64,000 nucleotides of DNA from a virus (IMGVR_UViG_3300046522_000316:64001-128000), one strand, 5' to 3'. Counted from the first letter of the stretch, positions 50,423 to 58,939 are shown. Numbers and translations: made by a program. Notes: generated by a model from the letters alone, not told the origin.

Positions 50423-51084
50423 TGGCAGTCAAGACGAAAAAGGTGAAGGTACAGTCGGTTAAGAAATCGAAAATCATCACCAAACCGAAAAAGACACAGG
50501 CCACACGCGAAGCAGAAAAGACCAAAGAGCGAAAGCGTAAATCGACAGCGGCCCCGGTGCGCTCTGCCGGTCGAATTAAAGTGGCGGGCATTCCGTACAA
50601 GCTGCGTAAGTTCGAAAACTTGGGCGCTCGCCCGATGCCCGAAACGTTCTTCACACGACAGGGCAAAAGTCTCAAGGATCTAATCCGAAATACGTTCCGC
50701 ATTTGCATCAACAATGCCGTGGACGTTGAGGCGCACCGTTACCAAAGCACCACGACGAAAGCCGGGCGCAAAGCCGTCAAAGGGATCATGTGGACGAATG
50801 ACCCGTTCCGCCCTGACCGCGTGCGTCGATACCACGAAACGTACATCGTGGGTCTGGATAAAAACGGCGAAAATAAACCACTGATGAAACACAAGCGGGT
50901 GCTTGTGCAATGCACGTGTGAAAACTACGTGTACTGGTGGGAATATGCGAACGCCCGTTGCGGTGCTGCGTACCTGATTTATTCCAACGGTGAACCGCCC
51001 GTGTGGACAAACCCCGGCATGTCGGTAGGCCTGTGCAAACATCTTGTGGCCCTGTCGAAAATTGTCATTGAAGAAAACCTCTGA
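50422..51084 (+). CDS. SWIM zinc-finger protein with a basic N-terminus
   Basis: VQCTCENY...GLCKHLVAL (CxCx(n)CxH). Confidence 0.8.
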   Translation: MAVKTKKVKVQSVKKSKIITKPKKTQATREAEKTKERKRKSTAAPVRSAGRIKVAGIPYKLRKFENLGARPMPETFFTRQGKSLKDLIRNTFRICINNAVDVEAHRYQSTTTKAGRKAVKGIMWTNDPFRPDRVRRYHETYIVGLDKNGENKPLMKHKRVLVQCTCENYVYWWEYANARCGAAYLIYSNGEPPVWTNPGMSVGLCKHLVALSKIVIEENL

Positions 51085-51091
51085 GGTATTC

Positions 51092-51514
51092 ATGAGCGAA
51101 ATTCAAAAAGAACTCGACGCAAAAGTCGCGGCACTTCCTGCAATGATCCGCAGTGTGTTCGGTCGCGACGGCGGCGTACAGTGGCCCATCATCGACACGC
51201 AGGCGCTTTCGTTTGATCTGGTCAACGAATTGCGCAACAAAACCCACGGCGATTTGTTTCTGATCGGCGTCGAAGTTGCTGACCACATTCGCTACACCAA
51301 CAGCGAAGCATATTTCACCGAGAACGATGGCAAGGAAGGCGCGCTGTATCCTTTCTTCGACGTTTCGTTTTCTGCATCGGGCCGTGAATCCGGCTTTGTC
51401 GGCACCCTGTTCGGCATGGACGTTTTCACGCATCCCGATATCGTGCCGAATGTTTTCGCGTGCGTGAAACAGGGCAACAAACCAATGGCCGTTATCGGTT
51501 ATGTGAAACTCTGA
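51092..51514 (+). CDS. Hypothetical protein
   Basis: ATG at 51092 with a GAGG RBS. Confidence 0.7.
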   Translation: MSEIQKELDAKVAALPAMIRSVFGRDGGVQWPIIDTQALSFDLVNELRNKTHGDLFLIGVEVADHIRYTNSEAYFTENDGKEGALYPFFDVSFSASGRESGFVGTLFGMDVFTHPDIVPNVFACVKQGNKPMAVIGYVKL

Positions 51515-52020: not shown

Positions 52021-52508
52021 TGGGCATGCCAACGCTTGCCGAAATTTACGCAATGCCGGAACCGATGCTGAGCGACAATTTCGACCTGCACGCAATCGGC
52101 GGTTGTCCGGAAGCGCTGGTCGCGTTGCCTAAATTCTTTCTGGATAACCACAAAGCATTTTCGCATCTGCATCGTACCTGCATCCGTGCCGAATGGCGCA
52201 AAGCCGCTGAAGGCGACCGCAGTGCGTTGACGCTGGTGTTCTTCGATATTCAAGGTGATCAAGAATATCTGGATACTCACGAAGCGTTCTGCGCTGACAT
52301 GGGCCAGCTGACTCTTCAGCAGTACGACCAAAAAGGCGAAGCAATTCGTCAGGTTATTTTCTCTGACCTGAAGTTTTCCGACGCTGTACAAAAACGCGAT
52401 GCTTCCGAAGGCCGTACCGGTGAACGCGCTGTAACGTTCAAGTACACGTCTGAACGAGTCGTCACGTTTGAATTCGCCACCGTCAAAGAAATTGCTTTGG
52501 ACAAGTGA
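52020..52508 (+). CDS. Possible tail-tube-like protein
   Basis: LAEIYAMPEPMLSDNFDL N-terminus and VTFKY C-terminus recall myovirus tube proteins. Confidence 0.45.
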   Translation: MGMPTLAEIYAMPEPMLSDNFDLHAIGGCPEALVALPKFFLDNHKAFSHLHRTCIRAEWRKAAEGDRSALTLVFFDIQGDQEYLDTHEAFCADMGQLTLQQYDQKGEAIRQVIFSDLKFSDAVQKRDASEGRTGERAVTFKYTSERVVTFEFATVKEIALDK

Positions 52509-52711
52509 GCGTAACCCGTCCGCGTAGCACTCCTTGCATTGGCAAATGTTCTCACAACGTTGGGGACGCCATTTGCAAGGGGTGCAAACGCACCATCGCA
52601 GAAGTCAGGGATTGGAATCGGTTTTCTCCCGACGAAAAAGTGCAAAGGATGGAAGAATTAAAGGTGCGCGACATTACGACATTCGTGATACCTGTGGAAC
52701 AACTCGACTAG
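52505..52711 (+). CDS. DUF1289-family Cys protein
   Basis: TPCIGKCS...CKGCKRTIAEVRDW. Confidence 0.8.
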   Translation: MSVTRPRSTPCIGKCSHNVGDAICKGCKRTIAEVRDWNRFSPDEKVQRMEELKVRDITTFVIPVEQLD

Positions 52712-52988: not shown

Positions 52989-53153
52989 ATGTTCCGAAAT
53001 AAACAACGTGGCTACATCGACTTCAGTGGTATCGGTACATTTCTGATTTGCGTGGGCGTCGTCGGTGGCATTTTGATCGGCGGCATTATTTTCAAAGTCA
53101 TTCCGTGGCTGTGGGATCTTTCGAAACCGTGGCTGCACCAAATCACAGGGTGA
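52989..53153 (+). CDS. 54-aa single-pass membrane protein with a prepilin-like leader
   Basis: MFRNKQRGYIDFSGIGTFLICVGVVGGILIGGIIFKVIPWLWDLSKPWLHQITG; AGGAGG RBS; absent from the ORF track. Confidence 0.7.
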   Translation: MFRNKQRGYIDFSGIGTFLICVGVVGGILIGGIIFKVIPWLWDLSKPWLHQITG

Positions 53154-53158
53154 AGACT

Positions 53159-53668
53159 ATGCAACATCGCAGTATTACCGATGAAGACTTGCGCGACTTT
53201 CTGGAAGACGAAAACATCACCGACATTTCTTTCGTGGCGCAGGGCCAAGTCCCGTACCACAACGGTGTGCAGCTTTTCGAAAAAGAATACGTCGGTCAAG
53301 GCCCTGACGTAGATTCCGCAATTGAAGGCGCCATGGCTACGTTCAGTGCTGAATATCGCGGCGAACGCGTCTACACTCGCGGCGTTCAGTTGTCCTCTAC
53401 TGACTCCGGCATTCTCGCTGTGTTCGTCGCGGCGATTCGTCCGGCTCCGAAAAACTTCAGCCAAATCCTCAACGATTTGAAGAAAGGCGCACAAGCCCGC
53501 CGCGCTGGCTGGAACGGTGCAGGCCAGTGTGTTTATCTGGAACGCTTCGCAGATTTCGACGTGAGTTTCGAACCGTGTTTCGTTCTGCATAACGCGCAAG
53601 GCAAATTGCAACCGGGTTGGATTCCGTCCATGGGTGATCTGCTGGCCGAAGACTGGGAAATCGCGTAA
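53159..53668 (+). CDS. tad2: DUF2829 / Tad2-like anti-defence sponge domain fused to an N-terminal domain
   Basis: NFSQILNDLKKGAQARRAGWNG...VYL...PGWIPSMGDLLAEDW. Confidence 0.8.
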   Translation: MQHRSITDEDLRDFLEDENITDISFVAQGQVPYHNGVQLFEKEYVGQGPDVDSAIEGAMATFSAEYRGERVYTRGVQLSSTDSGILAVFVAAIRPAPKNFSQILNDLKKGAQARRAGWNGAGQCVYLERFADFDVSFEPCFVLHNAQGKLQPGWIPSMGDLLAEDWEIA

Positions 53669-53910
53669 TGATCAAAATCACCAGCGTTGCCGCCTCGGAA
53701 TTGAATGCACACATTGAAAAAATGAATGCCGCAACCCGTGACTGGACAGACCGGGCGGCACGCGGTGAATGCAGTTGGATTTGTGCCGACTGCTGCTGTA
53801 CTTTTCCAAATGGTATGCCTGACGATTGCGCACACGGGCACGACTTCTGCACACAGATAATCCAACGCGACAAACAGCGCGCCATGCGTGACGGTAATGA
53901 ACCATCTTAA
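53668..53910 (+). CDS. Cys/His-rich small protein
   Basis: CSWICADCCC...CAHGHDFC. Confidence 0.65.
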   Translation: MIKITSVAASELNAHIEKMNAATRDWTDRAARGECSWICADCCCTFPNGMPDDCAHGHDFCTQIIQRDKQRAMRDGNEPS

Positions 53911-55151: not shown

Positions 55152-55778
55152 ATGAGCAATTTGCTTGCACACGCTGACCGTGAATTCGCAATCACCATGC
55201 GGAACATGCGGGCCAATCCGGAAAACGACGAAAGCGATTTGACGATGCAGGAACACATGCATCAAAACGTGCGTGAAATTCTGGAAGTAGTTTCCCGTCA
55301 GGGGCACACCGGTTTCAGCATCAATTTTCTGTTCCAGATGGTTCAGAAAGTTGGAATGTTTGAACCGCTTTCTCCGATCCTCGGCACCGACGACGAATGG
55401 GTTGACGTTGCCAATATCAGCGGCGGGCAACCGATGTTGCAGAACGCTCGCTGTGGTCACATTTTCCGTGATGGTGATTCAGGGGCTTACGATTCCACCG
55501 GTCGCATTGTCGTTTGTGAAGACGGCCAGACCGTGACGAATTATCAGAGCCGGGTTTACATCGAATTTCCGTATGTGCCGACTCGGGTTTACGCCCCGCA
55601 TGGTGAAGACCTAGAACGTTTCACCCGCGCCGGTATTGTGGTTGGTGACGACTACAAAACTGCCGACGAAGTTCGCGAACTTTACAAGGTTCTGAAACGC
55701 ACGGAAGAATTGCGCGAAGCTGGGCAAGCATTTGTTGCAGAAGTAGCGGCAACCGGCCTACCCAACGTAGACGAATAA
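55152..55778 (+). CDS. Hypothetical phage protein
   Basis: HADRE...QGHTGFS...FEPLSPILGTDDEW...QNARC...FPY pattern. Confidence 0.75.
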   Translation: MSNLLAHADREFAITMRNMRANPENDESDLTMQEHMHQNVREILEVVSRQGHTGFSINFLFQMVQKVGMFEPLSPILGTDDEWVDVANISGGQPMLQNARCGHIFRDGDSGAYDSTGRIVVCEDGQTVTNYQSRVYIEFPYVPTRVYAPHGEDLERFTRAGIVVGDDYKTADEVRELYKVLKRTEELREAGQAFVAEVAATGLPNVDE

Positions 55779-57164: not shown

Positions 57165-58724
57165 ATGGCAAAAACCGCCGTAAAGACCAAAAAGCTCGAC
57201 CTTTCCGAAAAGGTTCTGAAGACTTCCAAGTCGAAAGTTCCAGCCGTCGTTGAGAAAAAGACTTCCAAGTCGAAAGCTCCGGCAGTGAAAGGCTCTAAGA
57301 GCAAGGATGTAGCCGTCGCGGCCAAGCCCGACAAATTTGTCTTCAACCCTTACGCATCATTCGAAGACGAAATTGATAACATGGAAAAAAAGGTCGGTCT
57401 GACCTCCATGTCTGTCAACGAAAAAGAAGACCGGTTGGGAACAGGCAGTCTCTGTCTCGATCTGCAAATGGCCGGTGGCCTTCTGGCCGGTGGTTGGTAC
57501 ACCTTCTACGGTGCGGAACAGTCGTGTAAAACCACGCTCGCCACAACCGTGATGGGTTCCATTGTTCGCAAAGCATCTTTCCTCGGTAAAGCGTTTTTCT
57601 TCGACTACGAAGGTTCGTTCTCCGCTGAATATGCGAACGCGATGTGGAAATACAACGGCGGCGGAAGTGCCGGTACTGTTGAGCAAGTTTTCGGTCTGGC
57701 TGGGAAAGACGGCGACTGGATTATTCGCCCACGTATCCGCAACTATGCGCCAGCAGTTGGCGAAGACTTTTTCGATGCGTTGGCTAGCACACTGAAAAAG
57801 CTTCCGTCTGTTCTGAAACTCGATGGTGATTTCTTCTACATTTACGAAAACACCAAAGCGAATCAGAAGCTGTGCAAAGGTCATTACGACGTTAAATATT
57901 TCAAGAAGACCAACAAGTTCAAAGTCCCGGCGCCACACGGCTTGCCGCAGGCTGTGTTCCTTGTGGACTCTTACCCGGCAATGCTTTCGCGTCGTGCAGA
58001 CGATAGCGAAGAGGGTAAAGACGGTCTGGCCTCGCAAGCGCGTATGTTCTCTGACGGGATCAAACGTGTTAAAGGCCGCATGAAAGAAAAACGCGTTCTG
58101 GTTCTCGGCATCAACCAATTGCGTTCTGTTCCGATGGCGATGTACGGCCCGACCGAACAGGAACCTTGCGGCCAAGCGCTGAAGTATTTCTCTGACGCTC
58201 GTTTCCGTATGTCTCCGATTGCGATTCCGCACGCGAAAGGCATGATGGAAGAAGAGCCGTCGATTAGCGGCGTCGGTGTTGATACCTACCGTTACATCAA
58301 GTGCCACGCTTTCAAAAATAAACTCGGTGGCCCGCAAAAATCCAACATGATCATGCGTCTGTATGTGTCGAACGAAAACGGCGAAGGCCTCGGTTTCGAC
58401 CGCGTGTGGGATACGTGGATGTATCTGAAAGAAACTGGCCAAATTTCCGGCCAGCGCAACAAAATGAAATTCGCAGAAGGTACACCGTTCGCAGGTCACA
58501 CCCTGTCGTACATGGATCTGAAGAAATTGGTCGATGGCAAAAAAGAATTGATCAAATCTTGCTGCGAAAAAATGAAGGTCAAGCCGCTGCGTATTTACGA
58601 GTGGTGCCGCAAGCAAATCGAATCCGGCAAGGGTTACGATTTGTACCTTGATCAAATCAAAGCAACCCACACCAAAAAGGCAGCGAAAGCCGCAGCCAAA
58701 GGTGACGGAGAGGACGAAGAATGA
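57165..58724 (+). CDS. recA: RecA/UvsX-family recombinase with a Lys-rich N-terminal extension
   Basis: GAEQSCKTT (Walker A), FFDYEGS, VFLVDS (Walker B) and GINQLR. Confidence 0.92.
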   Translation: MAKTAVKTKKLDLSEKVLKTSKSKVPAVVEKKTSKSKAPAVKGSKSKDVAVAAKPDKFVFNPYASFEDEIDNMEKKVGLTSMSVNEKEDRLGTGSLCLDLQMAGGLLAGGWYTFYGAEQSCKTTLATTVMGSIVRKASFLGKAFFFDYEGSFSAEYANAMWKYNGGGSAGTVEQVFGLAGKDGDWIIRPRIRNYAPAVGEDFFDALASTLKKLPSVLKLDGDFFYIYENTKANQKLCKGHYDVKYFKKTNKFKVPAPHGLPQAVFLVDSYPAMLSRRADDSEEGKDGLASQARMFSDGIKRVKGRMKEKRVLVLGINQLRSVPMAMYGPTEQEPCGQALKYFSDARFRMSPIAIPHAKGMMEEEPSISGVGVDTYRYIKCHAFKNKLGGPQKSNMIMRLYVSNENGEGLGFDRVWDTWMYLKETGQISGQRNKMKFAEGTPFAGHTLSYMDLKKLVDGKKELIKSCCEKMKVKPLRIYEWCRKQIESGKGYDLYLDQIKATHTKKAAKAAAKGDGEDEE

Positions 58725-58939
58725 AACCCGACGACGTAGTAACAGAAAACACGGCAGCGCACGCGGCAGGTATGACGGCTGCGTCGTTGGAATTCCTCAA
58801 GACCAATCTGGAAGCGCTCATGAAATTGCAGGCATATTTGCAGGCAAATAAATTGGGCGGCGGTCGGGAAGTCGCATTGTCGATTACCAACCTGCAACAA
58901 AGCATCTTCTGGCTGACTGAAGCCAAAATCAAAATCTGA
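58721..58939 (+). CDS. Acb2/Tad1-like helical-hairpin protein (candidate nucleotide sponge)
   Basis: GREVALSITNLQQSIFWL resembles the RE.(A/S)LAITKLEEA..W motif. Confidence 0.55.
   Translation: MKPDDVVTENTAAHAAGMTAASLEFLKTNLEALMKLQAYLQANKLGGGREVALSITNLQQSIFWLTEAKIKI

Follow-up and report, generated by a model that had tools for sequence, protein, structure and literature searches.

The window analysed here is a viral stretch of 64,000 nt (IMGVR_UViG_3300046522_000316:64001-128000), and on its plus strand an open reading frame at 53159-53668 opens with ATG and runs for 169 codons before its stop. According to the ORF list and its translation, the whole gene (53159..53668, +) encodes a 169-aa protein in which an unnamed N-terminal domain (N-domain) precedes a Tad2-like domain. 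The N-domain spans aa 1-97 (53159..53449, +) and was delimited from AlphaFold models (pLDDT 87), having no match in Pfam or PHROG; the Tad2-like (DUF2829) domain spans aa 99-168 (53453..53662, +) and was placed by Pfam PF11195, by Foldseek and by residue mapping from HMMER alignments. The observation of a Tad2 fusion gene at this locus is confirmed. A purine-rich stretch that resembles a Shine-Dalgarno sequence, AGGGTGAAG, can be read at 53147..53155 (+); it is weak and putative, and it overlaps the stop codon of an upstream ORF for a 54-aa membrane protein, which ends 5 nt before the ATG of the fusion gene. Because all 17 of the 17 full-length homologues in the alignment begin at the same Met, the ATG at 53159 is favoured as the start over an upstream TTG at 53048, from which the longer reading would overlap the preceding gene. 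The fusion gene sits in a co-directional run of small, tightly coupled genes. Among those upstream of it is a gene for a 68-aa Cys-rich DUF1289 protein (PF06945, E 7e-16; 52505-52711, +), which is also found in the related contig L013. Directly downstream lies the gene for an 80-aa Cys-rich protein (phrog_31156, E 6e-36; 53668-53910, +), whose start overlaps the stop of the fusion (TAATG); this protein is conserved in the relatives L010, L012 and L014 and is missing in L013.

A Tad3-like gene (55152-55778, +) lies 1.5 kb downstream of the fusion, between a small sigma-adjacent ORF and ssb. Its 208-aa product matches PF25185 over aa 2-130 (E 2e-27) and carries ~78 extra C-terminal residues, and the gene is present in the relatives L010, L012 and L013. 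Proteins of the Tad3 family are direct inhibitors of ThsB in type I Thoeris (PMC13728456). In the phages HRDY3, Lu11 and PaBG, Tad3 is absent mainly by the annotation tables; a PF25185 scan came back empty, and the controls were likewise without a match. Overlapping the stop codon of recA is a 72-aa ORF (58721-58939, +) that resembles the Acb2/Tad1 hairpin (PF24729) at 20.2 bits, which is sub-threshold against a cut-off of 27; its orthologues in L010 and L013 give the same weak match. Between the window and L010 this ORF is only 42% identical, diverging as fast as the N-domain of the Tad2 fusion. The Tad3-like and weak hairpin-like genes are located around ssb-recA, within 5 kb, and the arrangement recurs in three related metagenomic contigs. 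It resembles the anti-signalling hot spot of N4-like phages, in which Tad2, Tad3, Acb4 and Sequestin are interspersed with SSB and RecA homologues (10.64898/2026.06.04.730250, preprint). The region has a second variable slot, occupied by a gene for a 237-aa Alginate_lyase2 protein (PF08787) in L010 (1331-2044), L012 (208-921) and L014 (481-1194), where it stands between genes for 220-aa and 134/140-aa proteins. In the window this slot (51084-51092) holds no gene, and L013 has a 563-aa intein-containing gene there instead.

The original prediction had read the C-terminal ~70 aa as a DUF2829 domain from two motifs, and both NFSQILNDLKKGAQARRAGWNG and PGWIPSMGDLLAEDW are found there. PF11195 (Tad2-like, formerly DUF2829) matches aa 99-168 with 70.7 bits and an E-value of 1.5e-19 over profile positions 2-72 of 73, the Pfam cut-off for this family being 25 bits. 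Among solved Tad2 proteins, SptTad2 (2e-10) and SPO1 Tad2 (gp34.65; 5e-7) were matched in sequence, as were ModTad2 and HgmTad2/AcrIIA7, and the sequence match to Tad2 lies far above chance level. A full-length AlphaFold model built from 18 homologues (pLDDT 87, pTM 0.70) has the N-terminal helix, antiparallel sheet and short C-terminal helix of the Tad2 fold, and Foldseek aligns it to 8SME, 8SMF, 8WJE and 8V3E, SPO1 and Myroides Tad2 among them, with TM of 0.78-0.83 by target and E of 3e-6 to 1e-5. In SPO1 Tad2, W25 and W73 make van der Waals contacts and N26 and D79 polar contacts to the ligand, with secondary contributions from D67, H71, T78 and S76, the last of which coordinates water (10.1101/2023.05.01.538930). 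The ligand of HgmTad2 is contacted by W21, N22, G23, S90, T92 and D93 (10.1101/2023.11.15.567273). HMMER alignments map these published contacts to W118/N119/G120 and W154/S157/G159/D160 of the protein described here, and no aligned member of the family, the HRDY3 and Lu11 proteins included, departs from W118, N119, W154, S157 or D160.

Co-folding of four copies with the homologue alignment gave a tetramer score of 0.74, as against 0.15 for the best of three controls; in the calibration of this score, 20 of 30 proteins whose solved structure is a pair of one chain passed the mark, compared with 1 of 23 whose structure is a single chain. Three co-folding runs shared at least 96% of contacts, with a partner pLDDT of at least 88. 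All confident interface residues of the predicted tetramer fall within 100-162, that is, within the Tad2 domain. The first predicted interface consists of helix α1 (100-108) together with the loop and helix at 153-162 and is the one that would form the pocket; the second involves 130-142 and 149-155. The two mirror the interfaces described for SPO1 Tad2, and the pass may reflect likeness to the Tad2 tetramers solved in the PDB rather than stand as independent proof. Domain, fold, pocket residues and predicted tetramer are all there, and the assignment of this half to the Tad2 sponges stands.

On these models, it is very probable that the Tad2 half acts like the characterised members of its family, as a two-pocket tetramer that sequesters a TIR-derived signal. 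The canonical tetramer would be assembled from four copies by way of the C-terminal Tad2 domains, with helix α1 interlocking the protomers of one pair and the short 130-142/149-155 stretch joining those of another. The assembly would create two inter-protomer pockets, lined by W118/N119 from the GWNG loop and by W154/S157/D160 from the W-x-P-S-x-x-D loop. These pockets would take up an ADP-ribose-derived alarm molecule made by a TIR protein, with the result that the Thoeris effector would never be switched on. The N-domain would sit at the periphery of the tetramer as a separate, lineage-specific α/β module.

The ligand would likely be 3'cADPR/2'cADPR, possibly His-ADPR or N7-cADPR. Several second-shell positions of the pocket differ from those of the tested sponges, and the ligand could therefore be other than gcADPR. 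The Thr that hydrogen-bonds adenine, T78 in SPO1 Tad2 and T92 in HgmTad2 (10.1101/2023.05.01.538930; 10.1101/2023.11.15.567273), is replaced by G159 (Ser in HRDY3), H71 by Q151 and D67 by Q147. Because the tested Tad2 homologues differ in their ligands, binding variously 3'cADPR, His-ADPR, N7-cADPR, cUMP/cCMP and cyclic dinucleotides (10.1101/2025.08.24.671296), we name no single ligand for this protein; ligand specificity is not readable from sequence. For one class of ligand the length of the domain is informative. The original prediction had pointed to the cyclic dinucleotides bound by some homologues, and this hint fares poorly. The cyclic-dinucleotide pocket of HgmTad2 and SptTad2 is built by an insertion of 35-41 residues between β2 and β5 (10.1101/2023.11.15.567273), and the protein described here has ~11 residues where that insertion sits in HgmTad2 (41 residues) and where SPO1 Tad2 has 24. 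Measured from the Trp of GWNG to that of W-x-P-S, the spacing is 36 residues here, compared with 48 in SPO1 and 66 in HgmTad2, making this Tad2 core, with its minimal β2-β3 loop, the shortest among those compared. Since the pocket-forming loop is almost absent, cyclic-dinucleotide binding of the HgmTad2 type is not expected here. A smaller second site, of the kind that binds cUMP in MoTad2, may be present at the dimer interface.

The fusion recurs in a narrow group of phages. A word-index search returned 17 full-length homologues of 164-179 aa, all of them metagenomic. When an HMMER profile of the N-domain was run against 1.84 billion representative proteins, eight hits were obtained, six of which were the same fusion (169-180 aa); the other two, long repetitive proteins with many weak stretches, were taken as spurious. 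Neither a stand-alone N-domain nor another fusion partner appeared among these 1.84 billion cluster representatives, and because so exhaustive a search gave the same architecture only, the N-domain is known only as this fusion. Two isolated Pseudomonas jumbo phages carry it, HRDY3 (XDJ15117, 43% identity) and Lu11 (gp169, AFH14704, 38%). Both orthologues have the two-domain architecture and the genomic slot of the window gene, sharing an order of small membrane protein, fusion, small ORFs, sigma factor, small ORF, SSB and RecA.

A more distant relative is found in the Pseudomonas jumbo phage PaBG, where a 216-aa protein (UniProt S5VZM3; L009:1117-1767, record 119448-120095) matches the N-domain model in BFVD with a TM of 0.78 and an E-value of 1.5e-4. 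Aligned as whole proteins by hhalign, the two match over 163 columns at a probability of 90% (E 1.7e-6). The PaBG protein thus appears to be a distant homologue of the whole fusion, which argues on sequence grounds that the architecture is old within the Lu11/PaBG jumbo-phage group. It retains E43, Y/F44, G46 and R74 and is unlike the window protein in its longer linker and in having TWEN in place of GWNG, and its pocket may be altered. This homologue surfaced only through a Pfam scan of the PaBG genome, the first tblastn match having been a 77-aa DUF2829 protein, and a tblastn search with the 216-aa protein itself returned no further relatives of the N-domain. The homologues of Lu11, HRDY3 and PaBG are annotated only as hypothetical or as 'Tad2-like domain-containing'. 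PaBG also carries a separate, stand-alone DUF2829 gene (gp302, 77 aa), which adjoins the clamp loader.

Three further candidates from phages were set aside. A tblastn match in SP-10 that reaches into the N-domain spans two separate annotated ORFs and is no fusion; a like match in SBSphiC was not counted, two ORFs being presumed there as in SP-10; and a 145-aa protein of Phaeobacter phage MD18, which aligns from residue 47 with low similarity in the N-part, was not counted as an N-domain. In BFVD, a 213-aa protein of Dickeya phage vB_DsoM_JA11 (A0A386K6M5; TM 0.60, E 8e-3) ranks second among the viral structures that match the N-domain. This protein is not annotated as Tad2-like and, judged from the model, might be an N-domain with a different partner.

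The constancy of the genomic slot raises the question of whether the gene serves anti-defence at all. In HRDY3, Lu11 and four metagenomic relatives the fusion always keeps its syntenic place within the sigma-SSB-RecA module, and such a conserved place in the replication/transcription module of all Lu11-like phages is less typical of anti-defence genes. The Tad2-like domain might accordingly bind a nucleotide or metabolite for phage replication or transcription, or merely tetramerise the N-domain. The altered second-shell residues would suit such a role, as would the change from GWNG to TWEN in PaBG, which shows that the pocket can drift in this lineage. We nevertheless consider it very improbable: the ligand-contact residues do not vary across the Lu11-like family, a sign that ligand binding has been kept; all functions tested in the Tad2 family consist in the sequestration of an immune signal (10.1101/2025.08.24.671296); and the Tad3-like and hairpin-like genes nearby speak for an anti-signalling neighbourhood.

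The original prediction had described the region before the Tad2 domain as about 100 aa of unknown fold. This holds in that the 97 residues have no Pfam, PHROG or significant structural match, whereas the fold itself is confidently predicted: modelled alone, aa 1-97 reach a pLDDT of 87, with all five AlphaFold models between 85 and 87. The model is an α/β domain with a four-stranded sheet, in the order helix 8-17, short strand 23-25, strand 37-48, helix 51-65 and hairpin 71-81/84-95, and a short conserved linker of the form R-P/V-A-P (R94, P97) connects it to the Tad2 domain. P32, E41, E43, A54, R74 and A92 are invariant. Among the aromatic residues only Y44 is well conserved (at least 90% of sequences), F40 being mostly so, and the net charge of the domain ranges from -10 to +2 across homologues, with no conserved positive patch.

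Against Pfam, all 18 members gave only noise in the N-domain (DUF2173 at E 0.086; CHAP at 0.003 in two members), and the PHROG search returned matches to the Tad2 half only, starting at residues 88-99 (PHROG 872 and 1048). Sequestin (PF21825) and Acb4 (PF13876) had no match at E up to 1 in the 18 N-domains. Sequestin was rejected as the identity of the N-domain on structural grounds too, being all-helical and 60-80 aa long where the N-domain is predicted to be α/β; the Acb2/Tad1 hairpin and Acb4 were rejected for want of a profile match among the 18 members. Nor are the N-terminal parts of two other Tad2 fusions from the homologue search (P0023 and P0028) relatives of this domain, the hhalign probability being 0.1%. 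Foldseek against the PDB gave dodecins as the best match to the N-domain, below significance (E 0.15, probability 0.85, TM 0.5). With VIA-align against 48,161 chains, the best Z was 5.5 (HK97-like capsid and CAP/SCP pieces), where the stated noise level is Z 7-8, and the dodecins scored Z 4.5-4.6 over 58-60 residues, within the noise range. A shape search of the ESM Atlas reached a TM of ~0.5-0.6, its top row probably being a family member, and a feature search of the Atlas with the N-domain gave no usable match. Residues 36-97 superpose on dodecin (PF07311; 2YIZ, 2CZ8) over 58-60 residues with an rmsd of 2.6-3.0 Å; the N-domain differs in having no sequence match to dodecin and no flavin-binding Trp, and in its additional N-terminal helix and strand. 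The likeness is probably that of a common small fold and not of membership. From this sub-threshold resemblance, we describe the N-domain as a predicted α/β domain with a dodecin-like β-α-β-β core and place it in no family.

The two halves of the protein have evolved differently. Mean pairwise identity is 49% in the N-domain and 69% in the Tad2 domain, and the identities of the two halves correlate weakly across pairs (Spearman 0.19). Some pairs are discordant, in either direction: P0006 has 38% identity in the N-domain and 93% in the C-domain, P0004 has 86% and 67%, respectively. Within one pair, synonymous divergence also differs between the halves. Discordance both ways, together with this synonymous difference, points to recombination between domain alleles, by which the N-domain would have been shuffled independently of Tad2. 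Compared with L010, the window is 89-94% identical in sigma, SSB and RecA, 84% in the Tad2 domain and 83% in Tad3, and 37% in the N-domain, which has diverged more than any other segment there. The N-domain dN/dS of 0.06-0.61 is below 1 in every pair and usually above that of the C-domain (0.13-0.25; 0.42 in the closest pair). Because of this purifying selection and the invariant charged residues, we take the N-domain to be functional and kept by selection. That it is less constrained than the Tad2 domain, or under diversifying pressure, would fit the dN/dS values equally.

The function of the N-domain might be structural: lacking any target, it would be an accessory that keeps stable, soluble or properly spaced a minimal Tad2 core from which the usual β2-β3 insertion has been lost. 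The core is indeed the shortest of those compared by its Trp spacing, the linker to it is short and conserved at R94 and P97 in a full-length model with a pTM of 0.70, and the N-domain, always fused and never alone, is under weaker constraint than the C-domain. Tad2 proteins of 77-90 aa that stand on their own, however, work without an N-domain, and PaBG has such a stand-alone copy of 77 aa. In addition, the N-domain lies outside the predicted oligomer interfaces, and a role beyond that of a passive spacer is suggested by the invariant charged residues E41, E43 and R74 and by the fact that both the Lu11-like phages and PaBG have kept the domain. A purely structural role is therefore possible in our view but doubtful.

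Another proposal is that the protein is a double sponge, the N-domain binding a second small molecule, from CBASS, Pycsar or another type of Thoeris. Fusions of Tad2 to a second sponge are common, a logic that led to the discovery of Sequestin (PMC12265669), and other matches in our homologue search are such fusions, of Tad2 with PF21825 in P0030 and with the Acb2/Tad1 hairpin in P0032. In structure the N-domain comes closest, though below threshold, to dodecin, which is a small β-α-β-β oligomer that binds a ligand, and E43 and R74 are kept even in PaBG. None of the 18 members, however, matches Acb4, Sequestin, Acb2/Tad1 or another family. Known sponges place their pockets at homo-oligomer interfaces; in the predicted tetramer (co-folding of four copies, residues not named being uncertain) no N-domain residue falls in any confident interface, and no oligomeric N-domain pocket is therefore evident. 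Nor does the domain show the signature of a basic or aromatic pocket, given its charge range of -10 to +2, the lack of a conserved positive patch and its few conserved aromatics (Y44 and mostly F40). The N-domain also diverges much faster than the ligand-binding Tad2 half, although a site for an invariant metabolite would not be expected to do so, and unlike Sequestin and Acb4 the N-domain never occurs on its own. For want of an oligomeric interface, a basic or aromatic pocket signature and a stand-alone form, the second-sponge reading is disfavoured, and we consider it improbable.

We conclude that the gene probably belongs to a Lu11/HRDY3-like Pseudomonas jumbo phage and specifies a Tad2-family sponge for immune signals, to which a separate and perhaps partner-binding N-domain module has been joined. 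Our best guess, which we infer only, is that this module contacts a variable macromolecular partner, which might be an immune protein of the host or a protein of the phage, and not an invariant small molecule. A macromolecular partner is slightly favoured because the N-domain evolves fast, is modular and would lie at the periphery of the tetramer. The idea draws solely on evolutionary rate, and a higher dN/dS could equally reflect relaxed constraint. The original prediction had gone further in proposing a bifunctional protein whose extra domain targets another defence system, a hypothesis that has published precedent and is plausible but unsupported. In its most developed form, the N-domain would be an unrecognised anti-defence module of Lu11/PaBG-type phages, carried on the Tad2 tetramer and directly engaging a variable immune protein of the host, such as a signal producer of the TIR/ThsB type or an effector. 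We hold this to be unlikely, though worth stating for its consequences: one protein would both block the production or reception of the signal and mop up whatever signal escapes, and the rapid, recombination-driven diversification of the N-domain would be the mark of an arms race. Tad2 sponges are a major means by which phages silence signalling-based immunity, and their fusion partners have already revealed Sequestin. The window gene adds a different partner, compact and confidently folded, which evolves several-fold faster than its sponge. Should the N-domain have an immune target of its own, a sponge and a direct protein inhibitor would be combined in one polypeptide, and there would be a handle on how the little-studied Lu11-type jumbo phages cope with Thoeris-like systems in Pseudomonas. 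Should it serve only as a scaffold, the gene would be an ordinary Tad2 homologue with a decoration.

Among characterised systems, the closest to the Tad2 half are SPO1 Tad2 (gp34.65; 8SME/8SMF/8SMG) and ModTad2 (8V3E, 9EIB), which belong to the same PF11195 family, share its fold (TM ~0.8) and its W/N/W/S/D contacts, and have the α1 interlock and second dimer interface that are likewise predicted here. They are single-domain proteins of ~89 aa, whereas the window protein adds an N-domain of 97 aa; its β2-β3 loop is also ~12 residues shorter than that of SPO1 Tad2, the adenine-contacting Thr/Ser is Gly, and the water-coordinating D67 and H71 are Gln. HgmTad2 (AcrIIA7; 8KBI-8KBM) and SptTad2 (8WJD) are dual sponges for gcADPR and cyclic dinucleotides that share the GWNG and W-x-x-S-x-T/G-D motifs and differ by their insertion of 35-41 residues, which is essentially absent from the window protein. 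Published Tad2 fusions comprise Acb4-Tad2 of Pasteurella phage Pm86 and Tad2-Sequestin (PF21825) (PMC12265669), in which a single polypeptide likewise unites Tad2 with a second module and the Tad2 part is predicted to tetramerise. Tad2 fusions as such are thus already known. The partner in the window gene is neither Acb4 nor Sequestin: it is a family-less α/β domain, never free-standing and confined to one jumbo-phage group, and what is new is this N-domain and its restriction to phages of the Lu11/PaBG type.
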